The notes beneath the pieces were generated by a model. The model was not told where the DNA came from. It saw only the letters and a list, made by a program, of their open reading frames with translations, and searched no databases. A DNA stretch of 57,276 nt from a virus. Lineage: Duplodnaviria > Caudoviricetes. Of the stretch, positions 2,492 to 19,657 are shown piece after piece; within the stretch, counting starts at the first letter, position 1; each line of letters opens with the position of its first letter. Location of the stretch: positions 1 through 57,276 of IMG/VR virus record IMGVR_UViG_3300025890_000031, one strand, 5' to 3'. Made by a program: the position numbers and the translations under genes.

Positions 2492-3751
2492 TTATTTCTT
2501 GCTCATTTTCCAAGTACCGCCCTTTGACTTGTATCTTTTTGCAGCCCATGCGTTTGCGTATGCACTTGGATAAACATCAAACTTAGATTTTGCTTCAGCA
2601 ATAGAAGAAGCCCATAATTTTGGTTTACTTGGAACTGGTTTAGCTTTGTAAACACCTACAACTAATTTTTTCTTCTTTTTTTTCTTCTTATAATTCCAGT
2701 CTGTACTATCTACATGAACATCTCCTGGAGTTAAATCTTTTTTAACATTTTTATAACGCTCTAACATCCTTCTACCTTTAGCAGCTAATTTTGCAGCGTC
2801 TGAACGATTTTTAGGAACAGGTTCGCCCCAAGCATTTGCAGCTAAAGCAAGTCTTGTTGGTTCGCCATTAGGTTTTGTCATAGCACCACTAGGGTTTGTA
2901 TAAAATCTTGTTAAGAAAGAACCTTTTCTTCTCATTTTCTCTGGTGTATTAGCAGCACCTTTGACACCAGGTTTTAAGTTAGCTCCTTCAGTTCTTTTGA
3001 AATGTGCACGACCAGCAGCAGTCAATCCACCTTTAGGATTTTTTAATCTTTTACTGACTTTTTTTTTTGATTGTGCGATAGCGATAGCCATAGCTTGACC
3101 CCTATCAGTTACAAGTTTTCCTTGTGCGTTTTTTAATTTTTTAGCATAAAATTCACGCATAACCATACCAATTTTATCTTTTCCTGCACCTTTACCCACA
3201 GCTTTTTGTGATTCCATGTGAGCTTGATTAAAAGTTTTGCCAGTTAGTATTCTTTTTCTCATATCTTTAATATGATTTGGTGTGTGATGTTTAGAATGTC
3301 TTTTTAATTTCTTTTCATCTTTTTCAGACATACCTTTTCCTACTTCTAGCATATCCATTTCAACTAATTCTCTTTGACCTTTTCCATGAACTGAAAATCC
3401 TGTATAAGAACCGTCTTTAACTTTTTCCCATACAGAGTCATCATCTACTTTAAATCCTATCCACCAACCTGCTGGTATAGAATCAGATTTAGAAACTAAT
3501 CCTAATGCTTCAAGTTTATCTGGTGTAACAACAAAAGATTCAACTACTCTTGCTACATTTTGATTAACGTGCATTTCTGCACCATTACGAGAGTGAAGAA
3601 CGTAATCATAAGCTGATTTTTCTAATTGACCAATGTCGTCAATAAAATCTCCTTGTGAATCAACGTAGACATCACCATCTTCATCTTTGATAATGTTTGC
3701 CCAACCAAATACTAACTTTTGTTCTTGGTCAAATTTTATTACTTCGTTCAT
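2492..3751 (-). CDS. XkdF-like putative prohead serine protease fused to several basic domains
   Basis: N-terminal ~130 aa has XkdF-type motifs (DSQGD, EMH, VVESF, WWIGFKV, YTGFSV). The C-terminus is K/R-rich with DUF6496-, DUF6321- and DUF5872-like segments. Confidence 0.75.
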   Translation of the reverse strand: MNEVIKFDQEQKLVFGWANIIKDEDGDVYVDSQGDFIDDIGQLEKSAYDYVLHSRNGAEMHVNQNVARVVESFVVTPDKLEALGLVSKSDSIPAGWWIGFKVDDDSVWEKVKDGSYTGFSVHGKGQRELVEMDMLEVGKGMSEKDEKKLKRHSKHHTPNHIKDMRKRILTGKTFNQAHMESQKAVGKGAGKDKIGMVMREFYAKKLKNAQGKLVTDRGQAMAIAIAQSKKKVSKRLKNPKGGLTAAGRAHFKRTEGANLKPGVKGAANTPEKMRRKGSFLTRFYTNPSGAMTKPNGEPTRLALAANAWGEPVPKNRSDAAKLAAKGRRMLERYKNVKKDLTPGDVHVDSTDWNYKKKKKKKKLVVGVYKAKPVPSKPKLWASSIAEAKSKFDVYPSAYANAWAAKRYKSKGGTWKMSKK

Positions 3752-4587
3752 GGTGTAGATTTTAGCTCATGTAATTGGCATCTGCAATTTGGGTGTATAG
3801 GTGGAGAAGTATAAGCACCCATAGTAGTTTGAAAAGGCTGTCCAGCTAAAACAACATCACCAGCAGATGGTGAACACTTACCACAAGGTTGAGAATCAGT
3901 TATCCATTGAACTTGAACAGGAACACCTGTAGATTTCCAAACATCTAACTTTGCACTTTCAATAGCAGTTTGCGTTTCTGTGTTAGCTATTAAAGCTGCT
4001 CTTTGTGCTAATAATTTTTCTGAATACTGCCCTACTTGTTTATTTATCTTTGTCTGAGATAAACCTTTAGTGCCTAAACTATTTCTTAAATTTTCTACAG
4101 CTCTAGCTCCCCTAGTATCTAATCCAATGTTTCCCTTAATCCTTTGAGCTATGTCTGGAATACTTGCTCCTGTTCTAAGACCATTTCCAACTGTTTCTCT
4201 TATGGCTAACTGTGTTTGTTTTGTTATACCTTCAACTAAAACAGCACCTCTCCTTTCGGCAAAATTAGCAGCTAAACCATTAATCAATTCAGGATTTTCA
4301 GGTAATGCTCGTGCTAATTTACTGTAAGCCAGGGAGGCAGCTTGTGTAAAAACTAGAGAGCTTAAAGCTATCATAAAAGTACTATCAAATGCTTCTACTT
4401 CTTCTGCAAAAACGCTTACTTCATTAATATTTTTAGATAATTTAGATATTTCAGACTTGTAAAGTCTTTCAGCTTCACGAATAGTTCTATTATAGATTTC
4501 TTCGTATTCTTCAAAGTCTTGTATGACTTCTTTTCTATTCTCCTTGGGGTTTATCGCCTTTTGGATTGAATTGCTGTCTAACTGCAT
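3748..4587 (-). CDS. MuF-like minor head (head morphogenesis) protein
   Basis: RAxxIAxTE, CxxC and PPIHPNCRC motifs; directly downstream of the portal gene. Confidence 0.85.
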   Translation of the reverse strand: MQLDSNSIQKAINPKENRKEVIQDFEEYEEIYNRTIREAERLYKSEISKLSKNINEVSVFAEEVEAFDSTFMIALSSLVFTQAASLAYSKLARALPENPELINGLAANFAERRGAVLVEGITKQTQLAIRETVGNGLRTGASIPDIAQRIKGNIGLDTRGARAVENLRNSLGTKGLSQTKINKQVGQYSEKLLAQRAALIANTETQTAIESAKLDVWKSTGVPVQVQWITDSQPCGKCSPSAGDVVLAGQPFQTTMGAYTSPPIHPNCRCQLHELKSTP

Positions 4588-6037
4588 CCTTAGCCTGTTC
4601 CTTTACTTGATTTACTGTTTCTTGTTGTTGTGCTAACTGAACAATTTTTTGGTAATCAATATCAGCAATACCAGTTGAATTATTTGGGTCTTGTGGTTGC
4701 AAATAATCTTCTTGGTCTTGCTTAGGCAAAGTAGCAATCTGACGTAAATATTCTTCAAGTTTTTGGTCAGGGAATATTTGCATACCAGACCCAGCAAGAG
4801 TTGATACGTATTGAGCCAATTCTTGTAGAGAAGGTGTTTCTAAGTCGCTATGTCTTAGTTTTGGTAACCTTGAAGTATCCATACCATTGATTTCAAATAA
4901 TTTTGGTATTGCATAGTCGTTAAAAACATTTGTAATATTATCTAAGTAACTTTCTAAAGCTACAGCAAATAGTCTAGTTTTATTACCAGCTAAAGAATAA
5001 GAGCCAGTTCCACCATGACCTAATAAAATAAAGTCGGCTAGTACTGTCATAGCTATTCGTTGTTCATATCTAGTTATAATACCTGTAGTATCAAACTGTC
5101 TACTTCCACCAGAGTTTAACAACTCAAATTCATATAATGGTTTTCCTGAAGAATCATAAACTCGTGGAAATATGATACCTTCTTGTGTATCTCTACGAAC
5201 ATTGACAATTAATTTTTTAATAGCTTCTAACATAGCTTGTTGGTCACTTGTAGCTCCAGCAGACATAATTGCAGGGTCTACATAAGCTATTGGAATACCA
5301 GCTAAATCTCTTTCTATACCAACACCTTCGATTTCTTCTATTCTTTTCTTAAAATACCAAGAGCGATATCCGTTTCTTAATATAGAACGACCTTCTGGAT
5401 TATTTTTATGTGTTTGTGTTCTAAACAATAAGCATTTTTCCATTGGTATAACAACTTGTTTGTAGGATGGTGGTGCTAACTGCATAAATCCTTTAATTCC
5501 ACCTTGTGGGTCAAAAATCCAATGGTCAATAGTATCTTGGGCACGCATAGGCATTTTTCTCCAACCTATTTTTCCATCATTAAACTTAGAACGCTGTTTT
5601 GCATCTTTGTTTTCTAATCCGCCACGCCTTTTGTAAACAATTTCGTGAACACTAAATCCATAAACTAACATTGACATAATTTCTGAAACAAACTCTAACC
5701 AAGTGTTAGACATGTCGTCCATACACTCTTGAACGAATTGAGCATCTTGAACGTCTTTTCTTTTAGCTGAATATGGTTCTACATCCCATTTAGTACTTCT
5801 GATAATTTGGTCTACTGCAAATAAAATAGCACCGATAATTGCATCATTATCTGCCATTTCACGATATGTCTTCATTCCCTTTCGACCTTGAAGGTCGTAC
5901 AGGAACTCTTCCATTACATATCCAGCTTGTCTGTTTAGACCAGACATACCAAACTCTGACATACCTACACTTTCGTTGATATTAGGTGAAGCACTTCCTA
6001 GTGCTTTTGATATGTCGTCAAAATCTTTTTCACTCAT
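4535..6037 (-). CDS. Portal protein (DUF935/Mu gp29-like)
   Basis: 500 aa; YGFSVHEIVY, NPEGRSILR and GIERDLAGIP motifs; followed by MuF. Confidence 0.85.
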   Translation of the reverse strand: MSEKDFDDISKALGSASPNINESVGMSEFGMSGLNRQAGYVMEEFLYDLQGRKGMKTYREMADNDAIIGAILFAVDQIIRSTKWDVEPYSAKRKDVQDAQFVQECMDDMSNTWLEFVSEIMSMLVYGFSVHEIVYKRRGGLENKDAKQRSKFNDGKIGWRKMPMRAQDTIDHWIFDPQGGIKGFMQLAPPSYKQVVIPMEKCLLFRTQTHKNNPEGRSILRNGYRSWYFKKRIEEIEGVGIERDLAGIPIAYVDPAIMSAGATSDQQAMLEAIKKLIVNVRRDTQEGIIFPRVYDSSGKPLYEFELLNSGGSRQFDTTGIITRYEQRIAMTVLADFILLGHGGTGSYSLAGNKTRLFAVALESYLDNITNVFNDYAIPKLFEINGMDTSRLPKLRHSDLETPSLQELAQYVSTLAGSGMQIFPDQKLEEYLRQIATLPKQDQEDYLQPQDPNNSTGIADIDYQKIVQLAQQQETVNQVKEQAKDAVRQQFNPKGDKPQGE

Positions 6038-6968
6038 TTTCAGGAAACCACATTTCTGCTTTGCTAAACAATTCTATTCTTTCGTCTTTACTTAAATCTG
6101 ATGGGTCATTACCCCAATCAGGTTTATACCTACCAACCATGATAGGTAAGTCTATCTTATCACATACACTAGCACTTGCTAATTTACCAGCCTTATCATT
6201 GTCAAAACATAGAGCAATATAGGCAGGGTTTAGACGATTTAAGAGGGTTTTTTGAAAATCGCTAAAATGTGAGCCTAAAATAGCTAAAGCAGGTATACCA
6301 ACTTCCCAAAAAGCCATTGCATCTAAAGCACCTTCGACTAAAGCTAATCCACCATCATAATTTAACTTTTTCATGTTCTCGTTTATAAGTTGTGACTTTT
6401 GATACTCATGCTGTCCAAATAAATATCCAGCTTTTTGAAAGCCTTTTGGATATAAATATCTAATATTTGCATCTGGGTCTAATCTTCTCTTAATCACACC
6501 AATAACTTTCCCATGAAAAGTTCGTAAAGGTATAGTTACTGAATTACTTAATGGGTCATAGCCTAAAGAAAACTTTTCAATAGTTTTATCAGTTAATCCT
6601 CTTTCAGACCAATAATCATGTGGATATTTATATTGTTCTAGCCATTTTTCATCATGATATGAAGTTTCTTTATCTTTTATTGGGTCTGAAACGTATTCAT
6701 CTAGTTCACGAATAATATTATCTATTGCATCTATTGGTATTTCTTGTAGATATGGATAATTTTTCTTTATTCCTAATCTTCTAAGTAATCCATTCCAATT
6801 ACCCTTTTCTTGACACCCATGACAAATCCATAATCCGTTTTCTTTGTTTACAGCAAAGCTAGGATTACTGTCTGAGTGAAAAGGACACCTACAATAGTAT
6901 TCTTCTTCCGATTCTGTTACAACATCTAAATGTTTTGAAACTATATCGGCACGATACTTATTGACCAC
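6030..6968 (-). CDS. dnaG: DNA primase (CHC2 zinc finger plus TOPRIM)
   Basis: CPFHSD..PSF..CHGC zinc finger; VEGALD and FDNDKAG TOPRIM motifs. Confidence 0.92.
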   Translation of the reverse strand: MVNKYRADIVSKHLDVVTESEEEYYCRCPFHSDSNPSFAVNKENGLWICHGCQEKGNWNGLLRRLGIKKNYPYLQEIPIDAIDNIIRELDEYVSDPIKDKETSYHDEKWLEQYKYPHDYWSERGLTDKTIEKFSLGYDPLSNSVTIPLRTFHGKVIGVIKRRLDPDANIRYLYPKGFQKAGYLFGQHEYQKSQLINENMKKLNYDGGLALVEGALDAMAFWEVGIPALAILGSHFSDFQKTLLNRLNPAYIALCFDNDKAGKLASASVCDKIDLPIMVGRYKPDWGNDPSDLSKDERIELFSKAEMWFPENE

Positions 6969-7302
6969 GGTTAATCAAATCAACAGCATACCTATCTGCT
7001 ATTACTGTTTGATATTCGCTATATTCAAAATGTTCCCCACCAGCATGTTCACCAGTAACTTTTATTTTCCAATGAGTTTCACCTTTGTTATCTACGATAT
7101 TATCTATTTTTTCAATAATAACGCCTTGCTTGAAATTTCCTTCTATAACCATTCCAACTTTTAAATCTGATGGCTTATATGCTTGTTTATTTCCTAAAGG
7201 TATAGTTCTGCCGTAGCTTAGATAATATCTAACACCTGTTTTTTTTGGCATTTTGCTCCCTTTCCTTTCTATTAGAACAAACTCCACTTGCTCTTCATTC
7301 AT
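6958..7302 (-). CDS. Hypothetical protein
   Basis: 114-aa ORF overlapping both neighbours in the operon. Confidence 0.65.
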   Translation of the reverse strand: MNEEQVEFVLIERKGSKMPKKTGVRYYLSYGRTIPLGNKQAYKPSDLKVGMVIEGNFKQGVIIEKIDNIVDNKGETHWKIKVTGEHAGGEHFEYSEYQTVIADRYAVDLINRGQ

Positions 7303-7477
7303 TATTTAATAATATTCTTCCACGAACACGAGGATATTTCGTCTTGTGGTGAATATAACAAAATTTTTGATTATTATACTTACTTAGCATTTGCTCACAC
7401 TTTTCAGATTCACAAATTCTATTTTCACCATAAGTTTTAGATTTTCTAGCCTTTGGTCTTTGTGTACCTTCAATCAT
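7295..7477 (-). CDS. Small Cys/His-containing hypothetical protein
   Basis: C-x4-C ... C-x2-H pattern; AAGGA RBS. Confidence 0.65.
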   Translation of the reverse strand: MIEGTQRPKARKSKTYGENRICESEKCEQMLSKYNNQKFCYIHHKTKYPRVRGRILLNNE

Positions 7478-7679
7478 ATTTTTCCTTTCTTCTTCGGTAG
7501 GGGGATTAGTTACTCTCTTACTTTATCTCGCTTTGAGCCCTACCTATCTTCTATAGTAATTTCACCATTTGAATTGTCAATGATTTGGTTAAACTTTTTT
7601 TCATACAATTTTTTGAGTAAGAAATCTGGGTCATCTTTAAGTTGCTTTGCTTTAAAAACAACCCATTGATATTCTTGCA

Positions 7680-8966
7680 TCAGTCGTAATCTAAATCGTC
7701 TTGGTCAGCTAATATCAAGTCTTGTGCAATATCCCCTGATATTTCTTCAAACGAACCATTCCCTGGTGTAAATTTACAAAACCAGTTTTTATTATCTTGT
7801 CCGTGTCGGAACTTAGCTAACTTGAATTTAACAACGTGGGGAGATTTCTGTACTAGCGTAACTACACAATCTGCATCCATACCTATGGCATCAGATTGAG
7901 ATAAGTGAATAACTGATGGTGGTTCATTACCACCACCCTCTCTATTCATTTGTGCAGCGGATATGATGGGTATGTCATATCTCTGAGCGATTGCCTTGAT
8001 ATCAGCACTTAACGAAGCAACTGCTCGCCAATCATCTCCCCCAGACTTTAGTAATGTTAAATAATCTATATAAACAACAGTAGGTTTGTGTTCTTGTATT
8101 CTACTAGCCACGACTGCTGGAGATACAGCACCACGACTACCATCAACAACAGTAAAACTACCTTTTATTTTTTTAGGTATGTCTTGTAAGAATTTTTTAT
8201 ATGCTCTGATATCAAAGTTTTCACCTTTCATCAAGTCTAAAGATTTAAAAGTTTCTTTTCCATATTCTGAAGAAAGAAAACTCTGTACCCTAAACCCAAT
8301 TTGTTTTGAAGGTTGTTCTAAAGATACAAAAAGAACTTTTTCTCCTGCTTGTAATGCTGAACAAGCCATACGGATTAAAGTCCATGTCTTACCTTGACCT
8401 AACCTAGCACCTACTACCCAGAAATCTCCACCTGATGCTCCACCAGTTAAATTATCTAAGCTGGGAAAACCTGTAGGTATTCCTGCTAAACCTCGTTTAT
8501 CTTTAGCTGCTATTCTTCTTTCAATATCTGCTAATAAATAATCTCCATCATCTAAAATATTTAAAGTACTAGAACCTGTAGTAACTTTTTTCTGAAGTAA
8601 TAAAATATCTTGATATAAAGAATCTAATAACTTTTCTCCTGTTTCTTTTTCTTTAATATCTTCAAAAGTATTCTTCATTACAGAACTTATTTTAGTTCTT
8701 ACATAGTTATCTTTTACTTCAGAACAAAAATGTTCTAAATCATCTACTTTATATAAAACTACTTCAGGAAAGTTAGTTTTAAAAGCATTAGTACTAGGTA
8801 AAGTTCTATGCTGTATAAAGTATTTTTCTATCCATGAATATTCTTCAGGATAAGATATAAAGTATTCTCTACTTATTCCTTGTTCAGCTATTACTGCGTA
8901 GTCTTTTCTACGAAGCAAAGCAGAAACAAGAAGTATCTCAGGATGTGCTGACATCTTCTGCTCCAA
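7680..8966 (-). CDS. dnaB: DnaB-like replicative helicase
   Basis: GIPTGF, Walker A GARLGQGKT, SLEQ, YIDYL, AAQMNR, AKFRHG. Confidence 0.93.
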   Translation of the reverse strand: MEQKMSAHPEILLVSALLRRKDYAVIAEQGISREYFISYPEEYSWIEKYFIQHRTLPSTNAFKTNFPEVVLYKVDDLEHFCSEVKDNYVRTKISSVMKNTFEDIKEKETGEKLLDSLYQDILLLQKKVTTGSSTLNILDDGDYLLADIERRIAAKDKRGLAGIPTGFPSLDNLTGGASGGDFWVVGARLGQGKTWTLIRMACSALQAGEKVLFVSLEQPSKQIGFRVQSFLSSEYGKETFKSLDLMKGENFDIRAYKKFLQDIPKKIKGSFTVVDGSRGAVSPAVVASRIQEHKPTVVYIDYLTLLKSGGDDWRAVASLSADIKAIAQRYDIPIISAAQMNREGGGNEPPSVIHLSQSDAIGMDADCVVTLVQKSPHVVKFKLAKFRHGQDNKNWFCKFTPGNGSFEEISGDIAQDLILADQDDLDYD

Positions 8967-9089
8967 TCATCTATTTATTTTATTGTCCACAAGCTCTTGT
9001 GATTTTTCTAATCTAATACATCTTAAATTTTATACAAACAATTTCTATATTTTTTTTTTCATAGTATGCTTTCTACTGAAGGAGAGAAT

Positions 9090-9281
9090 TTGGAAAAATA
9101 TAAAGACCTTTTAGAAAGAGTCGGATTTACATTTGCTGAAGCATTTATTGGTGCAGTAGCTGTAGCTCCACTCATTGACTTAAATGCCTCAACTTTACAG
9201 TTGGCAATTATAGCAGGTGCTTCTGCCGCTCTTGTAGTAGTAAAAGAATTTGTTAAGAAAAATATGCCAGCAAAAAGCTAA
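9090..9281 (+). CDS. Holin-like membrane protein (r1t-type)
   Basis: LERxxxTFAEAF start and two TM helices; probable TTG start at 9090 after GAAGGAG RBS. Confidence 0.65.
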   Translation: MEKYKDLLERVGFTFAEAFIGAVAVAPLIDLNASTLQLAIIAGASAALVVVKEFVKKNMPAKS

Positions 9282-9287
9282 AGGTTA

Positions 9288-9364
9288 GGGGTGGATAAGG
9301 TAAGACTTGTTTAGTGTTGCGGGACAGTAGATAAGTAACGAGGGTTCAACTCCCTCCCACTCCA
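9288..9364 (+). ncRNA. Mini-tmRNA-like RNA: tRNA-like domain only, no mRNA-like domain
   Basis: Acceptor stem GGGGTGG/CCACTCC with G3-U wobble and discriminator A; stemless D loop ATAAGGTAAGAC; 13-bp capped hairpin; T arm GAGGG-TTCAACT-CCCTC. Confidence 0.75.
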
Positions 9365-9369
9365 CAGAT

Positions 9370-9717
9370 ATGTACGAATACGAAGGAATAGTAGAAAGAG
9401 TAGTTGACGGTGATACCGTTGACTGTTTATTGGATTTAGGTTTTAACACTTGGAAGAAATCTCGTGTTAGATTAGCAGGTATAGATGCTCCAGAATCCAG
9501 AACAAGAGATTTAGTTGAAAAAGCAAAAGGGTTAGAAGCTAAGAAGTGGCTCATTGACACGATACAAGAAAACAACAACAGGGTTGTGGTCAAATCGTTA
9601 GGAGTTGGTAAGTACGGAAGGTGTTTAGGCATCATCCTACTTCCAACTATGAATGTCAACGACAAAATGGTTGAGTTAGGATATGCAGTAGCTTATGATG
9701 GGAAATCCGCTAGATAA
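9370..9717 (+). CDS. Thermonuclease (SNase-like nuclease)
   Basis: VVDGDT, RLAGIDAPE, KYGR and MVELGYA motifs. Confidence 0.92.
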   Translation: MYEYEGIVERVVDGDTVDCLLDLGFNTWKKSRVRLAGIDAPESRTRDLVEKAKGLEAKKWLIDTIQENNNRVVVKSLGVGKYGRCLGIILLPTMNVNDKMVELGYAVAYDGKSAR

Positions 9718-10512: not shown

Positions 10513-10754
10513 CATTTTTTGTCTGTAGTTTTCTCCCAAATTTCTTATTGTATTGTGTACAGCCAAGATTTTTACAATATCTATAGCCTTTGATATTTTT
10601 ATATTTTCTATTGCAATTTTTGCAATTTTCTATTTTTTTCATGCTCTCTATTCATCGACTTCTAAAAATTTTCTCTATGTAAAAAATCACCGACCCACAG
10701 ATTTGTGGAAAAATCGTAATTTTTGGTGGGGTGGGGTGAAATATTTAAAATTGT

Positions 10755-10787
10755 AGTACTCCTCTCCTTATTGCAAAGGGTTGCAAA
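10755..10787 (+). repeat. Boundary element copy 1: AGTACTC-N5-CTTATTGC-N6-TTGCAAA
   Basis: Same blocks and spacing as 18082-18114. Confidence 0.65.
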
Positions 10788-11087
10788 TGGGTTTTAACTA
10801 TCGTGTATGAATGTACGCTCTCTCTATCAATCTCTAAGCTCCAGCGACCAATGTCCATTAAACTTTAAGCTCTCATTACCAGACTTAGCAAGTGATAACT
10901 CGTGATGTAGGTAGGCTTTTGTGCTCTTATTTGAGTTATACGCTACCTGCAAGGGTGGGGGTTGTTGAATTGAGAACATTGGATTAGGTTTTTCTGTCTG
11001 GTTAAATATTAAATCTTTTAGCTCTACATTTTCTCCTGCTATTAGTCCCAGAGTGAATGCTGTCTGTATATTCATAATGCTCTCATT

Positions 11088-11525
11088 CTAGTCTTTAACT
11101 ATTTCTCCATCAATTTCATCTCGTATAGCTGATAAGTACTCATCTTTAGTCCCATCAACAATCATAACACCCTGCGTTATTGTTTGATTAATTTCACTCT
11201 TACGAGGGCTATCTAGTCCATACATTTTGCTTATTCTATCCATAATGCTCAACGCTCTATCAATAGCACCAAGCTCCCCCTGTTGCACTCTCTCCCAAAG
11301 GATAAGTAACATCTGGTTAAGTCGTTCATATTCAACTGTACGGAGTTCATCTGTTGGCTCGGCTATGATTGATTTCATACTACGTTGTATAGACTTATAT
11401 GCTCCAGAACTATCGGCATACCCTAACTGCTTTGCTATGACCTCATAACTCGCACCTGCTTTCCTAAGCTCTAATGCCTGTCTATCTTTCTCCCTGACCT
11501 CAATGGATTTATTATTTACTTTCAT
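11088..11525 (-). CDS. terS: Terminase small subunit (HTH)
   Basis: ALELRKAGASYEVIAKQLGY HTH followed by helical region ending RISKMYGLD, an actinophage TerS-like pattern. Confidence 0.7.
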   Translation of the reverse strand: MKVNNKSIEVREKDRQALELRKAGASYEVIAKQLGYADSSGAYKSIQRSMKSIIAEPTDELRTVEYERLNQMLLILWERVQQGELGAIDRALSIMDRISKMYGLDSPRKSEINQTITQGVMIVDGTKDEYLSAIRDEIDGEIVKD

Positions 11526-11552
11526 GTACTCACTTTACCATACCCAAAAACT

Positions 11553-11679
11553 TAACTGTATGCAACGCCAAACCCAAGCTATCTTGATTATCCCATAGAG
11601 AGCCTTATTTATTGACTTGTTCGCCAATACTTAGGTAGCCTTTTTTGAGTACTTCATTGTTTGCCCCTGCATACAGTTA
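11553..11679 (-). ncRNA. Candidate structured RNA in the terS leader
   Basis: Perfect 12-bp closing stem TAACTGTATGCA/TGCATACAGTTA with nested G-U-containing helices. Confidence 0.5.
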
Positions 11680-12340
11680 CTAAAAGTACTCGCTACTAAC
11701 CTTATAAATACTACCTCTTTCCTATGAGTGCTTTATTTGACTTCTCTCCGTGCTACTTTATGCTTTGACTTCTAAAATAACTTATAAATGAGTGCTAAGT
11801 CCATACTAATGTTCTGGATAACATCAACCCAATTTTTTTGATTTTTTTTCTTTTTTGTGGGGATTTCTGTAAACTTTTCCCCTCATGTTTTAAATGCACT
11901 CAAATATGTGGCTATCGGCATGGATTGGTATTCTGTATTACCCCTGTGACTTAAAACATATCTTATGAGCTCTTTTTGATTTATTTGCATACTTCGACTT
12001 TTTTCAATTCCCTACTATTTTTTATTTATTTTTGAAAAACTCTTGTTGGTCGTATAAGCTGAAAAGAGTGCACCTAACCCCAAATACTGTCAGCTATAGC
12101 TTGTGAAATAAATCACAAAGATATAGTCTAAGCTACGTACTCATAGGTTTTTTGCTCAAAAATGGCTTATTTCTCCATGAATAATATACATGAAAAATGT
12201 ATAATTATACATGATTTAGGGAGTACATAGGTCTATAAGCCTATGAAATAAGGCTTAAAATAGCCCTTATTTTATGGGGTTTTATGGACGAGTACTAAAA
12301 AAAAACTTTTAAAATAGGCTACCTAAAACAATTACCTACA

Positions 12341-12346
12341 TATAAT
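12341..12346 (+). promoter_or_regulatory. Candidate -10 box (TATAAT) of the early operon; a second TATAAT at 12200-12205
   Basis: Perfect -10 hexamers in an AT-rich gap upstream of the plus-strand operon; -35 not clear. Confidence 0.4.
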
Positions 12347-12375
12347 TGTATTAGATATCTATATATCTAAATTCT

Positions 12376-12862
12376 CTTGGATTATGAGGACAATAGGTGG
12401 TAATTAGTCTACAGTCGCTGTCGGAGGACGGAATGGAACTGACTTTTAGCCTAAGTGAAAAATCTCCCAAGAGGACACACAGAGCTTGTGTATTCAAGCT
12501 GACTAGAGGTCAAACGCCTTCTCTTGCGACCTTACTGTCAGATGAGTACATAAGTTATGCCTTCGGTCAAGAGGGCTTAGTCTGTTGTGTTGGTGGTTGA
12601 TTTTATCACAACCATACGACTTGCAGAGTACATCTCAGCATAGCGTGTTGCACCAAGCCTGTTGGAGGGCGATACTTCAGTTCAAGAAGTAAAAACTACC
12701 AAGCTAGGTAGAGGACTAATGCTATATGTGTTAGAAATTGTCTGTGCGTTGGCGTGTAAGGAGGTCTTATTGCAAGTAATCTCCTGTGTAGCCAAATAGT
12801 TTGTGCAAGAGTACCATAATCATATAGAAGTTGTCTTTTCTTAATAACCAAGTTGCTACTTA
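12376..12862 (+). ncRNA. Candidate large (~480 nt) multi-stem non-coding RNA
   Basis: About 45% GC versus about 32% for the genome, no convincing ORF, closing stem 12376-12394/12830-12852 and at least 7 internal hairpins with G-U pairs. Confidence 0.65.
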
Positions 12863-12930
12863 ATAGAGTACGCCTAGTGGATATTCATACGTTACATTTC
12901 GTAGTGTACTCCAGAGAGTGAGAATACATT

Positions 12931-13221
12931 ATGAATAGATTAACAAATATAGAAATGCAGGAAATAGTTGAACAGTATGGTGAGGTCACATTCACTAGAA
13001 AACAACTAAAAGTAATTCGTGCATTATTAAACGCTACAACCAAAAAATTAGTTAACGAGTACGACAACAAGAATAGTAAATCTTTTCAAGTTGCTCTAAG
13101 CTCTTTATCTAAATTTAACTTTGATTTTGCTGACTACTGTCAAGAGGTCAATGACAACTTCAAAAGAGAAGTTTGGTTTGATGCTAACAACCTAACACGC
13201 AACGCTAGGCGTATATGGTAA
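12931..13221 (+). CDS. Hypothetical early protein
   Basis: 96-aa ORF with a purine-rich leader. Confidence 0.7.
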   Translation: MNRLTNIEMQEIVEQYGEVTFTRKQLKVIRALLNATTKKLVNEYDNKNSKSFQVALSSLSKFNFDFADYCQEVNDNFKREVWFDANNLTRNARRIW

Positions 13222-13376
13222 GAGTACTTAAATCAAAGTATTGGTGGTATTATGGCTTATTGTTTACAAAAATAAACAATATTCATTGTAGAGTACACTA
13301 CAAGACATGGCTCAAAATGTATGACTTTTATTCTTATAAAATTGAAAAAGGACTATCTATGTGGGAGGACTGCTAA
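13215..13376 (+). CDS. Small hypothetical protein (53 aa, aromatic-rich)
   Basis: Manual translation MVRVLKSKYWWYYG...MWEDC; overlaps both neighbours. Confidence 0.5.
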   Translation: MVRVLKSKYWWYYGLLFTKINNIHCRVHYKTWLKMYDFYSYKIEKGLSMWEDC

Positions 13377-13528
13377 TGATGGTTGACACTAGAATAAAAT
13401 GTCTATGTGGAGAACACATGGCTAAAATAAGCGTAATGGCTAACGTAAAAAGTACAACATTAGTACAATTTTTATGTTTCCATTGTGGTGCGAGTACAAT
13501 CGCCAAAGAACAAAGTAAAAGAATATAG
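13376..13528 (+). CDS. Small zinc-ribbon protein (50 aa)
   Basis: Manual translation shows CLCG...CFHCG; GGAGG RBS; TAATG coupling. Confidence 0.65.
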   Translation: MMVDTRIKCLCGEHMAKISVMANVKSTTLVQFLCFHCGASTIAKEQSKRI

Positions 13529-13620
13529 GAATATATTGGAGTACACTACGAAGTGTATAGTATGAAATATAAATTCAGTTATCTACGATAGGTCTGTGTC
13601 CTCGGAAAAGGAATAATAAA

Positions 13621-14514
13621 ATGAGTAAGAACACTCTAGCAGAGAACATCTCTGCATTAATACCTAACAAATCGCTTGAAAATTATGTCAAGAGAATTGT
13701 TGACGGAGGTCAAAACGACCTAGAACTACTAGATTACGCACACAAAAGCAGACACAATGTCCTCATTTCTGGGGATACAGGTGTTGGAAAAACTCATTGT
13801 GTTTCGGCACATGCAGAGAACATTCAATTACCCTTTGTATCTATTGCTTGTAATGGTGCGACTAACCCAGACCAAATGTTCGGTATGTTTATGCCGAGTA
13901 CAGAGGGAAAAGGTTTTGAATGGACAGATGGTGTCGTGACCTCATTGGTTAGACATGGTGGCGTTCTTTTGCTTGATGAAGTGAACTTTATGAAAGCAGA
14001 TATTGCCGCTGCCCTCCACCCATTACTAGATAGTCGTAGAACACTAACCTTAGTTGAAAATGGGGGAGAGGTCATCAAAGCTCATAAGGATTTTCAAGTT
14101 GTTGCTTGTATAAATCCTAACTATGAGGGCACAAGACCATTAAACGAAGCCTTTAAAAATCGTTTTGCCTTACAGGTAGAATTTGATTATGAAGGTAACT
14201 CAGAGGACATTTTGATTGATGGTAGACCAAGTTTACTTGAATTAGCCGATAGGTTAAGAGAAAGTAGAGAAAATGGAACTATCACAACACCTGTGAGTAC
14301 AAACGCTTTAATGGAATTTTGTGAGTTTGTTGAGGACTTGGGAATAGAGTTTGCTATAAGCAACTTTGTTAACAGATTTGAAATAGATGAACGAAGTGCA
14401 ATCAAAGAGTACTTTGATGTATTAATTCCTCAAATAGCAAGTGAATTTGGAACTGATGTTCCTGAACTCTTTGTTGTTGAACAACCAGATGAGGAAACTG
14501 ATACAGATGAATAG
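13621..14514 (+). CDS. MoxR-family AAA+ ATPase (CbbQ/NorQ/CobS-like)
   Basis: Walker A GDTGVGKT, Walker B LLLDEVN, NPNYEG, and AFKNRF Arg finger. Confidence 0.92.
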   Translation: MSKNTLAENISALIPNKSLENYVKRIVDGGQNDLELLDYAHKSRHNVLISGDTGVGKTHCVSAHAENIQLPFVSIACNGATNPDQMFGMFMPSTEGKGFEWTDGVVTSLVRHGGVLLLDEVNFMKADIAAALHPLLDSRRTLTLVENGGEVIKAHKDFQVVACINPNYEGTRPLNEAFKNRFALQVEFDYEGNSEDILIDGRPSLLELADRLRESRENGTITTPVSTNALMEFCEFVEDLGIEFAISNFVNRFEIDERSAIKEYFDVLIPQIASEFGTDVPELFVVEQPDEETDTDE

Positions 14515-16483
14515 TCATGGCGAGGACAATCTAAGTTTAGATGAAGTCCAAAAAATTCTCAATATGCACGAGGACAACGAAGATAGAGTTTTCGGAGATA
14601 TTGAAATGCAAGAACGACATGAGGACGTACAACGAGAAAGCAGTCGTATGAAAGCGATTGGTAATGCCTTTGCGAGTACATTTACTAAAGTAAATCGTAT
14701 TCTATCAGGTCAAAACGAAATCAATGTACTTATGACAGAGGACAATGCAGGTGTTGACGCACCTGCTTGGACTGATGGAGAACACGTTTATTTGAATAAG
14801 GCTTATGTGAATAAATCTTTTTCTAGTATTTTTAATAATGCTAAAATTGATTTTTCACAAATAGCTGAGGTCAAAGGCTTGAACTACCATGAGTTAGCTC
14901 ATATATTCTATACCCCACGAATGAGTGATAAAATCACTAAGCTCGTGAGGGCAAAAGCCGATTTAGATAATGATTGGTGGTATGCGTACAATGTACTAGA
15001 GGATATGAGGGCAGAAAGCTCTATCATTCATGTTTATTCTAAAATGATTGACTATTTCACTTATACAGTTATTAAGTACATATTGAATAATGAGGACAAC
15101 GAAAATGACACTTCGTATTTTCTTTTAAGTGGTAGATTTTTTCTACCTATTGAAATGAGAAATATGATGAGGTCATTATTCGCTCAAAAATATGGTACTA
15201 AATTCACTAAGAATATGGATAGCATTGTTAAGAAATATGTGGCTGAGGTCACATATACTTCTGCAAGGTATCAAGAGGGCTATGATTTGATTGAACGATT
15301 TGTGCTTGAAGTAATCAAGCCAATGAGGGCAAAAAGTGGTCAAGCCTTACCTAAGTGTATCGGTGGTAGTAGCCACCAACAACACCACCATGCAGGAGCT
15401 AAACGAGGAGGACATTGGAATAGCCGAAATGAAATGGGCAATATGTGGAAAGGAAAAACACAAGTTGCAGACCAAAAAGAGGTCAAACCATTCATTGAGG
15501 AACTAATTGATGAAGTTGAGAGTTTAGAAAAACAGGCAGGAAAACTTGGTGCTAAAGCAAGTAAGGGGAGTACTGATAATTTAAGTGCTAGTGAAGTTAA
15601 TGTTGAATTAGAAAAAATCTTAGAGATTGTGGAAAAGAGTCCACAATTTAAGAGTGATGTTAAAATTACTCAAAAAGATATTAGTCATAAAATAGAAACA
15701 GCTATAGAGGACAGTTATATTAAAGGTCTTGAAGTAGCTCCTAGTTTATTGACACCTAGTCAGAGTACATTAGCTACAAAAATACGTTTAAGGCGTTATT
15801 TTAGACAATTAAGAATGGACTTAGAGCAGGATTGGTTGACAGAAAAGAGGTCAGGCAAGGTTGATTTAAGTCGTTTTATGTCTACAGAACATTTAGGAAA
15901 AACCGACATTTTTAAACGTTGGAAACCTAATGACGAGGACGTAGCTAGTGCTGAATGTGTAATTCTTGTTGATATGTCTGGTAGTATGTCAGGCGTTATG
16001 GACTCTGTTAGTCAAATAGCTTGGCTATTAAAGAGTGAGTTAGACAATATAAATGTGAGGACTTCAGTTCTTGGATTTGCTAATAATTGTTATAAACTAT
16101 ATACACCAAACCAAAAAGCCGACAGAGGTCAATACTCTGCTTGGGCTAGTGGTGGGGGTACACAACCAATTTACACATTAAAACAAGCTAATAAAATATT
16201 GACTAAAACCGATAGAAAAAATAAGGTAGTTATTGCCCTCACTGATGGTGCATGGACTAACCATGATGATGAAATCGAGGAGGTCAAGAACTTGACTAAA
16301 AATTGTGATAGCTCAAACTTGCTATTCTTTGGCTCTTTTTACTCTTTTGAGGACAGAGGCAAAGATGAGAAAGTGAGTTTTTCACATTTTGATAATCTTA
16401 TTAAAATTAATAAGATTGAGGACACAGTAAAAGTAGCTAAACAATTAGTTGCCGATATTGTAAATAAAGTAATAAACCAATAA
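14507..16483 (+). CDS. Metallopeptidase-like plus vWA domain protein (CobT-like MoxR partner)
   Basis: HELAH...NVLEDMR zincin motif; MIDAS DMSGSM...T...LTDG; ATG at 14507 preferred over the track start at 14441. Confidence 0.88.
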   Translation: MNSHGEDNLSLDEVQKILNMHEDNEDRVFGDIEMQERHEDVQRESSRMKAIGNAFASTFTKVNRILSGQNEINVLMTEDNAGVDAPAWTDGEHVYLNKAYVNKSFSSIFNNAKIDFSQIAEVKGLNYHELAHIFYTPRMSDKITKLVRAKADLDNDWWYAYNVLEDMRAESSIIHVYSKMIDYFTYTVIKYILNNEDNENDTSYFLLSGRFFLPIEMRNMMRSLFAQKYGTKFTKNMDSIVKKYVAEVTYTSARYQEGYDLIERFVLEVIKPMRAKSGQALPKCIGGSSHQQHHHAGAKRGGHWNSRNEMGNMWKGKTQVADQKEVKPFIEELIDEVESLEKQAGKLGAKASKGSTDNLSASEVNVELEKILEIVEKSPQFKSDVKITQKDISHKIETAIEDSYIKGLEVAPSLLTPSQSTLATKIRLRRYFRQLRMDLEQDWLTEKRSGKVDLSRFMSTEHLGKTDIFKRWKPNDEDVASAECVILVDMSGSMSGVMDSVSQIAWLLKSELDNINVRTSVLGFANNCYKLYTPNQKADRGQYSAWASGGGTQPIYTLKQANKILTKTDRKNKVVIALTDGAWTNHDDEIEEVKNLTKNCDSSNLLFFGSFYSFEDRGKDEKVSFSHFDNLIKINKIEDTVKVAKQLVADIVNKVINQ

Positions 16484-16556
16484 CACATTAGAGGGCATTA
16501 GACCTATCGTAGATAACTGAATATCTTAACTACTCTTTATAGAAATGGAGGACTGC

Positions 16557-16721
16557 ATGAATTTGCAACCTATGTTTTTCAAAGATTGCCCTAACTGTAA
16601 CATGAGTACAGTATGGACAGCTTTGGAACAAGTTAATGAACTCGAACAACGTGTAGAATGTGATGAATGTCAAACGACAGAAATCATGCCTAGAGTTGCA
16701 GAGGACTTAGTCAATGGTTGA
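16557..16721 (+). CDS. Small zinc-ribbon protein (54 aa)
   Basis: Manual translation shows CPNC...CDEC; GGAGG RBS. Confidence 0.7.
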   Translation: MNLQPMFFKDCPNCNMSTVWTALEQVNELEQRVECDECQTTEIMPRVAEDLVNG

Positions 16722-17100
16722 TGATATTAAAAACATTTTAATTTCACTTAACCAAATAAGATTAAGTCGTATGAGTTTAGATGACCAAGAGAGTACTTTA
16801 AAACAACGATTACTAGATTATTTTAAATCTAGTGATATGGCTAAATTCAATGTATCACATGAGGGCAAGAATATACGTGCTACCCAAGTGAACAATGATA
16901 GAGTTATTATTGATGAGTTAGGACTTATAGAGAACATATCTCCAGAACAATATGATAAAATCATAAAAAAATCTGTTGATAGAAAACTCTTAGAAATAGC
17001 CATTAGTAATGGGGATATTAGCGAGGACTTAGCTAAACAGTTTATTAAAGTACAAGCAGGAAAAAAATACATTAAACTTAATGTTGAGGAGGACAAGTAA
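16714..17100 (+). CDS. Hypothetical protein
   Basis: 128 aa, GAGG RBS, coupled to neighbours. Confidence 0.7.
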   Translation: MVDDIKNILISLNQIRLSRMSLDDQESTLKQRLLDYFKSSDMAKFNVSHEGKNIRATQVNNDRVIIDELGLIENISPEQYDKIIKKSVDRKLLEIAISNGDISEDLAKQFIKVQAGKKYIKLNVEEDK

Positions 17101-17399
17101 TGGTACAACCACCAAATACTAGCCCCTCAGCATTGAGGACTTATGTTAATAGTAAGACAAGAAATAAAATGTATTTACCAAGTGACCTAGCGAGGTCATT
17201 AGGTGTGTCTGTTAAAACAGTACGCAGGTGGATTAAGGAGAGCAAAATATTACCTAGTGTTCATTTAGAACAAGGAAAAAACCTTATACCCCTATGGACT
17301 GCCGAGGACATAATCTATGTACAGAATTGGTATCTAAAGAAAAGTAAAGGAAAACAACCCAAATATAGAGAGGAGGTCAGTACTGATGATAACATTTAG
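17100..17399 (+). CDS. MerR/excisionase-like HTH DNA-binding protein
   Basis: SDLARSLGVSVKTVRRW HTH. Confidence 0.8.
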   Translation: MVQPPNTSPSALRTYVNSKTRNKMYLPSDLARSLGVSVKTVRRWIKESKILPSVHLEQGKNLIPLWTAEDIIYVQNWYLKKSKGKQPKYREEVSTDDNI

Positions 17400-17589
17400 T
17401 AGTGGCTTACATTTCGGCATTATTGTAACTATGATTTCTGTAGTTATGTTTTTAGCATACGAGGTCTTTAATGTACTTCGTTTGTCTTATGCCGAATATA
17501 AATATAATAAAGAAAAACCTATTGAAGTAGACTTCTCCACGAGGTCTGGTAGAGAAAAGTTTTTCAATGAAACTTACAAAAAATGGTAA
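17386..17589 (+). CDS. Small membrane protein
   Basis: N-terminal TM helix; GGAGG RBS. Confidence 0.65.
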   Translation: MITFSSGLHFGIIVTMISVVMFLAYEVFNVLRLSYAEYKYNKEKPIEVDFSTRSGREKFFNETYKKW

Positions 17590-17798
17590 AAACATCTAGC
17601 TTAGACGAGGGCGATACTGTTGAACATTCGCTTACAGTTGAAACGAATGTTTTAGGCAATAAGATATGGCTTAAAACAGGAGCAACAACTAAGGTGAGGA
17701 CAGGGGAAACCCCAAGTGGTGCTAGTAAAAGATTAGCCAACTTTGTGAGTAGGAGAACATCTCAGCAATTACAAGAGTTGAGAAAAACAAGCGAGTAG
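17583..17798 (+). CDS. Hypothetical protein
   Basis: 71 aa, last gene before the terminator. Confidence 0.6.
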   Translation: MVKTSSLDEGDTVEHSLTVETNVLGNKIWLKTGATTKVRTGETPSGASKRLANFVSRRTSQQLQELRKTSE

Positions 17799-17820
17799 TT
17801 GAGTACGTATTTCATACAAT

Positions 17821-17869
17821 GGGATAGCAATTTTATTAATTTAAAATTTGCTATCCCCACTTTTTTTTT
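17821..17869 (+). terminator. Intrinsic terminator of the early operon
   Basis: GGGATAGCAA/TTGCTATCCC stem followed by T9. Confidence 0.8.
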
Positions 17870-18081
17870 GCTCTCTTTTTCACTTTCTTCTATCGCTGCT
17901 ATTTTTTATTATTGCTTTTTTTTTGCTCTCTTTTAGAAGCAAAATGGCTGGGGGTTCAGGTAAAAAAAAAGTACTCGTCACCATCATGGGCATCTGGATT
18001 GTTATAAAATGCACTCATATTTTTGGTGATTTCGTCAGGAGCATCTGCACTCTTTTAAATATTCTTCTTCCTTCGCTGCAC

Positions 18082-18114
18082 AGTACTCTAAAACTTATTG
18101 CGAACCCTTGCAAA
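18082..18114 (+). repeat. Boundary element copy 2: AGTACTC-N5-CTTATTGC-N6-TTGCAAA
   Basis: Matches 10755-10787, 7327 bp away. Confidence 0.65.
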
Positions 18115-18271
18115 AATAATTTGTACTCAAAAATGAGAAAAAAAAAGTTTTGTCCTCTTTTTCTACGGATATGTCTTCTAGGGACTTTTCAAAATGCACT
18201 CGGAAATTCAAAAACTTTACAATTCAGGTTGAAGGTGATTTATGTTTTACGAAAGTAGAGTGCTAAATTTA

Positions 18272-19657
18272 TTAAACAGACCAGGGACTTTTCTGTCTTA
18301 CAAAATCAATTAATGGTGCGATTGCTTCAAACTTATATCCACGTTCAGCCCAAGCTAAAGCCATAGCTACCATACTGTCAGGTGTATGACCATTTCCATA
18401 TATATCATCAAAACCTGCGTATTTGTGGTCTTGATACATACTTTCTACCATAGGACTTTGAATTAACCCACGCTCACAAGCAGATATATATTCAGAAAAT
18501 AAATTCTTTTTATTACTACCAGTAATTACATAAGGTATTGAATCTATTTCTATGTAATCTTCTACAACATTACCTATACCAGTAGCGTCATGTACTAGCT
18601 TACCAGGGTATTTCGCCACTCTATCCTGTGCTTTTTTAACCATATCTCCCCATGCTTCTCTGTGTGTTCTTTCAAAAGCAACTACACGCCATGGTTCTAC
18701 GTCAGTTCTAAGGGTTGCTATTACTGTGTAATCTCGTTGCTTAGCCCAGTCAATGCCAGTAATGTATACCCCCTCCCCATTGTATTTTTCAAATAAATAT
18801 TCTTTACCTACTTCTCCAGATACTTTTGGATGAGTGCTTAATGAAAACATTTCATCGACTTTAGCTGCGTCTATAGCTCTACCTTCAAAAGAAGGTTCTT
18901 GCATATCAAATTCTATATCCCACATAGCTTGTGAAACTTCACTTCTTTTTCTTTCTACTTCTGAAACTGGTAGCCAGCCATGTGGTTGTACTGTTTCTCT
19001 CCAACACCATTCATAAACAGGATATCCTTTTTCTTTAGCTCTTTTAAGCATTTCTGTCATAGTTTTATCTGGATACTGGTGTGTAGAAGAAGCTACAGTT
19101 TGTGTTTGAATGCCATTTTTAGACATAGGTTGCCCCTGTGCTGCCTCTAAAATCTCTAATTCCATTTCGTCTATCTCATCAAGCCTTAGTCTTTGTGGAT
19201 GTTGACCACGAACAGACCTTTGTGAAGCCGTTAAAGCTCTAATCCAAGCTCCTGTAGTTAAGTTTGTTGAATATTTATTAGGTTGGTCGACTAAAAGACC
19301 TGTAGGTGCGTTCTTATGTGCCCATGCTTCTAAAGATATTTCATAAACACGAAGTGATTGTGCTGCTGAACCACCTAAAACTGTTACTTGTGCCCCTAGT
19401 GTTACTGCTTCAGTTAAAGCTAGTAGCCCTAATGTATTAGTTTTTCCTCCCATACCACGACTAGCCTTCCAAATAGAAAAAGGTGACCTTGCAAAATAAG
19501 CATCAGCAAAAGCATCAAATGGAGATTGGTGGTGTGGACAAATAGGTGTTCTAGGTATTGATATTCCCCATAATAAACGAACTACTTCCCATAATTCATC
19601 ATTATCTTGTGGTGGTCTACCTAATATTAATTGTTTTTTTGCTTCGGTTTTTTCCAT
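18272..19657 (-). CDS. terL: Terminase large subunit
   Basis: Walker A SRGMGGKT, Walker B LRLDEID, nuclease GIDWA...D, DATGIG, PDSMVA. Confidence 0.9.
   Translation of the reverse strand: MEKTEAKKQLILGRPPQDNDELWEVVRLLWGISIPRTPICPHHQSPFDAFADAYFARSPFSIWKASRGMGGKTNTLGLLALTEAVTLGAQVTVLGGSAAQSLRVYEISLEAWAHKNAPTGLLVDQPNKYSTNLTTGAWIRALTASQRSVRGQHPQRLRLDEIDEMELEILEAAQGQPMSKNGIQTQTVASSTHQYPDKTMTEMLKRAKEKGYPVYEWCWRETVQPHGWLPVSEVERKRSEVSQAMWDIEFDMQEPSFEGRAIDAAKVDEMFSLSTHPKVSGEVGKEYLFEKYNGEGVYITGIDWAKQRDYTVIATLRTDVEPWRVVAFERTHREAWGDMVKKAQDRVAKYPGKLVHDATGIGNVVEDYIEIDSIPYVITGSNKKNLFSEYISACERGLIQSPMVESMYQDHKYAGFDDIYGNGHTPDSMVAMALAWAERGYKFEAIAPLIDFVRQKSPWSV

Follow-up and report, generated by a model that had tools for sequence, protein, structure and literature searches.

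Long-range complementary arms around gene cassettes in the early operon of an uncultured marine phage

Why would a phage place matching inverted sequences on either side of the gene groups in its early operon, with partners up to 2.9 kb apart? The question is raised by virus record IMGVR_UViG_3300025890_000031 of IMG/VR, a linear sequence of 57,276 nt with an estimated completeness of 81%, which we analysed as a whole and call the window. Its presumed early transcript is read from the plus strand, from a promoter region near 12.2 kb to a terminator at 17.86 kb, and three gene groups lie between the first arm and that terminator (12931-13528, 13621-16483, and 16545-17798; Table 1). An original prediction, made from the letters of the sequence alone, had described the unit as a giant cloverleaf built from consecutive long-range stems. 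Here we describe three helices, I1, I2, and P4, their conservation in relatives, and the explanations that could account for them—we lean towards the view that helices of 11-40 bp in plus-sense early mRNA partition the gene cassettes, with cleavage by host RNase III their most likely use.

Abutting helices and their conservation

In the window, helix I1 (12884-12913/13537-13566) is complementary at 27 of 30 positions; RNAduplex gives it 28 pairs and -45.5 kcal/mol. Helix I2 is complementary at 23 of 23 positions (13573-13595/16500-16522) and continues past a 1-nt bulge for eight more pairs, two of them G·U, reaching 13603/16491; its 31 pairs reach -51.7 kcal/mol with arms 2.9 kb apart. Its 23-nt core exceeds every other exact inverted repeat of the 57-kb window; the next are of 18 and 17 nt, ahead of the 16-nt core of I1. 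Whole-window shuffles (n = 30) gave a longest exact repeat of 15-18 nt in 29 cases and 21 nt in one. Scored as ungapped helices in a 6.7-kb segment, I1 and I2 reach 58 and 55, compared with 35-47 in five shuffles, and in a plus-sense ranking of the whole window (arms no more than 8 kb apart) they come second and third, after a 40-nt imperfect match within tail genes. Both are present exactly in the minimum free energy (MFE) fold of 12212-17870, with 27 and 31 pairs, and I1 also appears in the MFE and centroid structures of its own cassette (z = -8.6; 20 shuffles).

The third helix, P4 (16525-16535/17793-17803), consists of ten Watson-Crick pairs and one G·U pair and would be unremarkable alone; we regard it as validated by relatives, judging from the partner scans given below. 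I1 and I2 are separated by 6 nt, I2 and P4 by 2 nt. This agrees with the original prediction that the last three of four consecutive pairs each begin 2-6 nt after the one before, except that I1 starts 31 nt past the first pair.

That first pair (12376-12394/12830-12852), which would close the non-coding stretch at 12375-12852, did not hold up, nor did an outer pair (12345-12358/17807-17820) proposed to close the whole unit. Pair 1 needs gaps and does not rise above chance; its columns are invariant in RNAalifold, which neither supports nor refutes it by covariation, and 12376-12394 is absent from the ten best duplex partners of its 3′ arm. The outer pair reaches -9.3 kcal/mol, compared with -14.0 to -15.8 kcal/mol for the 12 best other partners of its 3′ tail. 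Both are missing from the MFE fold of 12212-17870 and neither is the best partner of its own arms; of the four consecutive pairs, three are thus supported by shuffles, folding, or relatives, and the closed cloverleaf is not supported.

Relatives of the operon fall into three lineages: the window, clade B (L005, L006, L008, L009, L010, L012, L015, and L018, with duplicate fetches), and L007. A search with the terminase-like protein recovered four loci (L005-L008) whose terminases are 88-92% identical to that of the window and whose operon DNA is 67-81% identical; alignment searches returned five metagenome and nine viral loci for the vWA protein, several of them the same contigs, and six loci for the terminase. 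In L007 the operon lies on the minus strand at about 2950-9500 (L019 and L025 are the same locus refetched; terminase 87-88% identical). The I2 3′ arm lies beyond the ends of L012 and L018, and the L013 sequence is not long enough. No relatives were recovered when the vWA or MoxR protein was used alone as a locus query, the exact I2 23-mer had no match in viral contigs, and a scan for the promoter palindrome (Table 1) gave 28 loci, seven of them with the motif arrays described below and all seven on six known viral contigs, adding no new lineage. More distant hits (L020-L024) are GC-rich, lack motif arrays and comparable stems, and were set aside.

In each of the five genomes first compared, the two top-scoring helices are the equivalents of I1 and I2, which are also the top helices in L009, L010, and L015. 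The I2 helix of clade B is again perfect over 23 of 23 pairs and differs from the window at two positions, both compensated; that of L007 is a 40-pair helix of largely different sequence at the equivalent position, with arms 3.0 kb apart. At least five sequence versions of I1 exist, and their loops span 288-621 nt. When arms were aligned against arms, paired states changed on both sides were found in 16 of 35 I1 columns and 22 of 42 I2 columns. For P4, the best duplex partner of the 22 nt past the I2 3′ arm lies at the last stop codon in five of five genomes, among 1237-1337 windows of the segment per genome; three different P4 sequences share this partner position (for L007 we used helix and partner scans, and set aside a column analysis with an ill-chosen 3′ window). 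Unlike sequences thus pair at the same positions in three lineages, through few independent events. The original prediction had named covariation around differing genes as one check on its stems, and these stems do stay paired by compensatory change in relatives whose enclosed genes differ.

The geometry is conserved as well. The I1-I2 and I2-P4 spacers measure 6 and 2 nt in the window, 8 and 1 nt in clade B, and 10 and 0 nt in L007; where measured, 15-21 nt separate the 5′ arm from the first ATG, and the 3′ arm follows the last stop codon at a distance of 0-8 nt. All helices are adjacent or nested, and crossing ones were not found.

The cassettes themselves vary. The first gene of the I1 cassette differs between genomes, and four clade B members (L005, L006, L012, and L018) carry an extra cassette, a 66-amino-acid cysteine-rich open reading frame (ORF) with a 23-nt stem of its own, Ix, whose loop is 226-227 nt. 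This cassette splits the I1 5′ arm into an outer and an inner part, with the helices nested; the Ix 5′ arm resembles the I1 arm, and the outer I1 pairing (TCATAC/GTATGA) can still close over both the Ix and I1 cassettes. The presence of an extra cassette, with its own stem, inside an I1 arm indicates that cassettes come and go with their arms while the helices stay nested.

One further repeat touches these arms. The tail past P4 (17804-17820, GAGTACG...TTCATAC) is a repeat of 12866-12892, which leads into the I1 5′ arm and includes its start, and in clade B the best duplex partner of this tail is the I1 3′ arm; the tail may be a remnant arm or an alternative pairing.

What folds, and what the fold may do

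To compare the two strand senses we aligned 5′ arms against the reverse complements of 3′ arms, a method that favours neither strand. The I1 cells comprise 150 Watson-Crick pairs, 16 G·U pairs, two A·C oppositions, and 11 other mismatches; the I2 cells comprise 97, five, none, and one, respectively. Such cells are not independent events, and the strand signal comes mainly from the window and L007. In plus and minus sense, the duplex energies are -45.5 and -39.5 kcal/mol for I1 and -51.7 and -44.4 kcal/mol for I2 in the window, and -45.9 and -24.8 kcal/mol for I1 and -61.5 and -55.4 kcal/mol for I2 in L007. The plus-sense gain for I1, I2, and P4 is 6.0, 7.3, and 3.8 kcal/mol in the window and 21.1, 6.1, and 0.8 kcal/mol in L007. 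Within the window the deviations are mostly G·U, as had been predicted: one G·U and two other mismatches in I1, two G·U and a bulge in I2, and one G·U in P4. The wider claim, that such deviations point to a fold of the plus single strand, is borne out by the duplex energies of the window and L007; however, clade B is neutral or slightly opposite.

Both arms of each helix lie on the same strand, between one promoter region and one terminator, and short RNA contigs cover some parts of the operon and leave others bare. These contigs come from two runs of one study (X16 and X17), whose library may contain DNA; one ends at 17867, near the terminator, another ends at 12879, and a third starts at 16497—contig ends are not RNA ends, and we do not use them as evidence. 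Because of the strand signal, the codon-linked geometry, the non-crossing helices, and the presumed single transcription unit, we think it likely that the helices are plus-sense RNA structure.

On this account, the mRNA would fold into consecutive panhandle domains holding the small ORFs, the MoxR/vWA pair, and the five small ORFs, with each helix joining the untranslated spacer upstream of a gene group to the spacer downstream. Near-perfect double-stranded RNA of 28-40 bp is a generic RNase III substrate. Cleavage is the most likely use of the helices. I1 and I2 (22-40 bp across genomes) would form near-perfect double-stranded RNA, and the host enzyme would cut them to give cassette mRNAs whose 5′ and 3′ ends stay paired. 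Paired ends could in turn insulate the stability and translation of each cassette from its neighbours, so that cassettes could be swapped or added. The analysis itself shows the helices, the compensatory changes that preserve them, their fixed placement relative to start and stop codons, and the variability of the cassettes; RNA as the molecule that folds, RNase III as the enzyme, and the effects of cutting are steps that we infer.

Several observations weigh against this account. Pairing over 0.3-3 kb must compete with translating ribosomes and local folds. P4 is missing from the MFE fold of 12212-17870. Clade B is neutral in strand sense (I2 reaches -52.2 kcal/mol in plus and -51.6 kcal/mol in minus sense), its ungapped I2 repeat is 9 nt longer in the minus sense (score 64 versus 55), and in Ix two neighbouring A·C oppositions of the plus sense read as G·U in the minus sense (-31.6 versus -34.6 kcal/mol). 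The collections searched hold only three deep lineages, so that the covariation counts do not stand for many independent events. The two I2 changes that separate clade B from the window, each of them compensated, are T·A to A·T transversions with no wobble intermediate, and would fit DNA-level copying between the arms equally well.

The main alternative, which we consider unlikely, keeps the RNA helices but leaves them uncut, as clamps that pair the ends of each cassette. Clamps could guard against exonucleases and 5′-end-dependent RNases, bring the stop codon of the last gene beside the first ribosome-binding site, or prevent misfolding across cassettes. All structural and comparative evidence applies to them too; the short distances from arm to ATG and from stop codon to arm would put termination beside initiation sites, and P4, at 11-13 pairs in the window and clade B, has less than the length usual in a classical RNase III substrate. 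Long-range processing stems of the rRNA-operon type, which RNase III cuts by a staggered double-strand break, flank the released unit, keep their pairing through compensatory change, and extend over about two helical turns or more, as do I1 (28 pairs), I2 (31 pairs), and their equivalents in relatives (22-40 pairs); to escape cleavage at such lengths, I1 and I2 would need special antideterminants.

Somewhat less probable again is that the arms are DNA-level inverted repeats that serve recombination and are kept alike by copying between arms, with RNA pairing a by-product. In Hin/Gin/Cin invertible segments and attC integron cassettes, short inverted repeats delimit genes and the content varies between relatives; here, too, the cassettes vary, with the extra one placed exactly inside an arm, and the compensated transversions of I2, the clade B repeats that are as good or better in minus sense, and the RecA encoded by the phage are all in keeping with a DNA-level origin. 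However, no joints that would mark DNA inversion between 13573 and 16522, which the original prediction had raised, were seen in the arm-spanning DNA contigs of two independent runs (X2 and X3), which show the dominant form only; BLAST comparison with L005-L008 found no inverted isoform, gene order and orientation matching the window, and the stem order is unchanged in other clade B loci. Finding a single orientation is weak evidence against Hin/Gin/Cin-type switching, since contigs drop rare forms. No Pfam family of invertases, integrases, or transposases was detected among 55 ORFs scanned (13 of the operon and 42 others, in a record that is 81% complete), including any serine or tyrosine recombinase near or within the segment; nor is there a local attC-like hairpin with an integrase, the arms lying instead on opposite sides of each cassette.

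The arms themselves also fit poorly with recombination. Their deviations are of the wobble type and favour one strand; the I1 arms of L007 pair through seven G·U and lose 21 kcal/mol in the other sense, which identity-based recombination would not predict. At 11-40 nt they are short for RecA, and neither non-crossing helices nor fixed distances to start and stop codons are required by recombination. In addition, a strand-specific motif (the hexamer described below) occurs in every cassette in one orientation, which argues that cassette orientation is old and evolutionarily stable. An RNA-level, rRNA-operon-like arrangement fits better than DNA inversion.

We give very little credence to the idea that the arm pairs are binding sites of a lineage-specific DNA- or RNA-binding protein (for looping, for example), with the copies changing along with the protein. 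Both copies do change in concert between lineages, and the operon encodes a small helix-turn-helix (HTH) protein and zinc-ribbon-like ORFs; however, I1, I2, P4, and Ix are four unrelated sequences that would need four proteins, the copies are always inverted, abutting, and nested, and their deviations are wobble-type rather than random. Least credible of all is folding of the plus DNA strand while single-stranded during replication, packaging, or injection: G·T wobbles are tolerated in DNA and the strand asymmetry would be that of RNA, but a single-stranded stretch of up to 3 kb would be needed at one time, and the start- and stop-codon geometry and the single promoter-terminator unit have no DNA rationale.

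Comparison with known systems

The early polycistronic mRNA of phage T7 has RNase III sites between its genes, and the cut leaves a protective structure; these sites are local hairpins of a few tens of nucleotides. The early polycistron described here would likewise be punctuated between genes by double-stranded RNA elements. Unlike the T7 hairpins, its helices have strands that flank the genes on opposite sides, with loops of 288-3029 nt.

In bacterial ribosomal RNA (rRNA) operons, RNase III cuts stems flanking the 16S and 23S rRNAs (PMC6582327, accessible portion). There, helices that pair sequences 1.5-3 kb apart follow one another and surround the RNAs to be set free, and the phage operon has a similar layout; in contrast, the phage helices, spaced 0-10 nt apart, enclose cassettes of translated protein-coding genes, and their cleavage is presumed. 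The predicted rRNA-operon-style organisation of the early mRNA survives to the extent that three abutting long-range helices bracket cassettes in one presumed transcription unit, but neither its closure nor circularisation is supported; the helices that we drew have no bulge-helix-bulge-like geometry of the kind that circularised cassettes would suggest.

In Bacillus subtilis, mRNAs have been documented to be cut by RNase III within helices that form over long intramolecular distances (PMC11780869, accessible portion). The targets covered there are scattered cellular mRNAs, whereas in the phage a series of helices exactly brackets gene groups, spans distances of up to 2.9 kb, and has been conserved along with the cassette organisation. 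In Staphylococcus aureus icaR, pairing between the 5′ and 3′ untranslated regions is an RNase III substrate (PMC3868564, accessible portion); there, the 3′ region pairs with the Shine-Dalgarno region and blocks translation. The Shine-Dalgarno-like sequences of the phage lie 4-12 nt outside the helices instead—AAGGA (13608-13612) outside I2 and GGAGGA (16547-16552) outside P4.

In the literature searched, for which full-text coverage was limited, no description of a comparable phage arrangement was found. Should the helices prove to be processing or insulation elements, they would represent a naturally evolved equivalent of the RNA-processing insulators used between genes in synthetic biology, and would explain how small early genes can be swapped without disturbing the expression of their neighbours. 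To our knowledge, there are few documented bacterial or phage cases of kilobase-range mRNA pairing that survives translation; with three to four conserved helices packed into 5.5 kb, the present operon lends itself well to end-mapping and structure probing.

The operon, its hexamer arrays, and the virus

Table 1. Elements of the early region of the window and the adjacent terminase-like gene.
Feature	Position	Strand	Remarks
Perfect 16-bp palindrome, TGTATAAT on both strands	12197-12212	both	Read from sequence; kept in window, clade B, and L007
Leader hairpin, then short U-run	12234-12284	+	Inverted repeat I9, 20 nt at 80%; conserved in alignment A1
Proposed outer 5′ arm, unsupported	12345-12358	+	Just after -10-like hexamer 12341-12346
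Non-coding stretch (ncRNA candidate)	12375-12852	+	Alignment A1, RNAalifold
I1 5′ arm	12884-12914	+	Ends 17 nt upstream of ATG 12931
I1 cassette, small ORFs	12931-13528	+	96 aa, doubtful 53 aa, 55-aa zinc-ribbon-like
I1 3′ arm	13536-13566	+	Starts 8 nt past stop codon 13526-13528
I2 5′ arm	13573-13603	+	Ends 17 nt upstream of ATG 13621
MoxR/CobS-like AAA+ ATPase, I2 cassette	13621-14514	+	Pfam AAA_5
vWA/CobT-like protein, I2 cassette	about 14507-16483	+	Pfam VWA_2
I2 3′ arm	16491-16522	+	Starts 8 nt past stop codon 16481-16483
P4 5′ arm	16525-16535	+	2 nt past I2; ends 21 nt upstream of likely ATG 16557
P4 cassette, five small ORFs including zinc-ribbon-like	16545-17798	+	
MerR-like HTH protein, 99 aa, P4 cassette	17100-17399	+	
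P4 3′ arm	17793-17803	+	Overlaps last stop codon 17796-17798
Intrinsic terminator, hairpin then U-run	17821-17869	+	MFE -23.2, z = -5.2
Terminase-like gene	18272-19657	minus	

The palindrome at the head of the operon reads as an extended -10 element in both directions, where two early units diverge, and is a candidate for divergent early promoters with a rightward start near 12212; it may be a back-to-back promoter pair, an operator, or both. A sigma-70 scan listed 19 promoter-like sites, compared with 24.1 expected, and neither the palindrome nor the main terminator was among the features listed. The terminator that had been predicted to follow the unit is present, with its hairpin at 17821-17857 and a U-run. 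The -10-like hexamer beside the proposed outer arm is kept as TAnnnT in clade B.

The non-coding stretch is probably a structured early RNA. By eye it is about 90% identical between the window and clade B, compared with about 70% for genes (mean column identity of the whole alignment A1, 86%), and RNAalifold predicts 143 pairs in it, 11 of them changed on both sides. It matches no Rfam family—Rfam families and ARAGORN tRNAs both numbered zero—and L007 has an unlike sequence of similar length in its place. Among the cassettes, the I1 ORFs match no Pfam or PHROG family; the I2 cassette matches AAA_5 (1.5e-23), VWA_2 (5.6e-7), and PHROG 249 (7.6e-47).

A hexamer, GAG[G/T/A][A/G/T]C (GAGKDC), with A or T as the usual next base, has 81 copies on the plus strand of 12.0-18.3 kb (between 12066 and 17801), in all three frames of ORFs and in non-coding parts. 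The gaps between copies have a minimum of 27 nt and a median of 69 nt, and only one of 80 exceeds 172 nt; a random process of the same density would place about 30% below 27 nt. On the minus strand the hexamer is found in the leftward early unit (10648-12142) and in the 400-nt interval that separates the terminator from the terminase-like gene (17875-18201). Elsewhere it is depleted on both strands (five observed versus 18-39 expected, and 12 versus 37-78), whereas sibling words are not. The arrays of L007 use GCG[G/T][A/G/T]C, with 95 GCGNNC and five GAGNNC on the operon strand, compared with 86-96 GAGNNC and two to four GCGNNC in the window and clade B. In the vWA gene, 13 of 26 site positions are shared between the window and clade B, and three of 26 with L007. 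The shared positions and the counts together indicate that density and spacing are conserved rather than exact sites, and that the recognised base switched between lineages.

Candidate roles for the hexamer are an early-RNA mark recognised by a phage factor or nuclease, roadblocks resembling the stoperators of mycobacteriophages (as treated in the accessible portion of PMC9283540), and Chi-like end protection near 17.85 kb. A strand-specific, evenly spaced, lineage-switching hexamer may point to an unknown marking of early transcripts or early DNA.

Tentatively, and with low confidence, the helices and hexamers could be joined in one scheme, in which RNA cassettes with their own kilobase-range arms are plug-and-play units. 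New cassettes would be inserted within existing arms, as Ix appears to have been, and a double-strand-specific RNase would resolve the transcript into autonomous mRNAs with paired ends. The GAGKDC mark (GCGKDC in L007), lying about every 70 nt on the transcribed early strand and purged elsewhere, would be a lineage-specific six-base signal read by a phage-specified factor, telling early from late nucleic acid.

In the record as a whole, the minus strand carries nearly all genes; the only plus-strand island is at 12.0-17.9 kb, where GC and AT skew are reversed. Pfam matches include a Mu-like portal, a tape-measure-like protein, a tail tube protein, a DnaE-type polymerase, DnaB, a primase, RecA, WhiB, and a ParB-N/DUF4417 protein. 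WhiB together with a GC content of 34% suggests a low-GC marine actinobacterium as host; WhiB-bearing marine phages are treated in PMC3861242 and PMC7771536 (accessible portions). The stretch is present in marine and seawater metagenomes from 13 studies, with 15 DNA runs containing it, and a collection of cultured phages held no relative by blastn of 12000-18200 or tblastn of the terminase-like protein.

Two smaller features adjoin the operon. A 145-amino-acid early protein encoded on the minus strand (11088-11525) matches PHROG 645 ("Rnase E") at 8.5e-27 and no Pfam family; by eye it has the look of a helix-turn-helix protein, and the "Rnase E" label may mislead. Directly past the terminator, a T-rich 20-nt direct repeat occurs in two exact copies 55 nt apart (17860-17935), and DNA contigs from two runs show loose ends or small indels at 17903-17962—the repeat region is a variable or hard-to-assemble spot beside the terminase-like gene.

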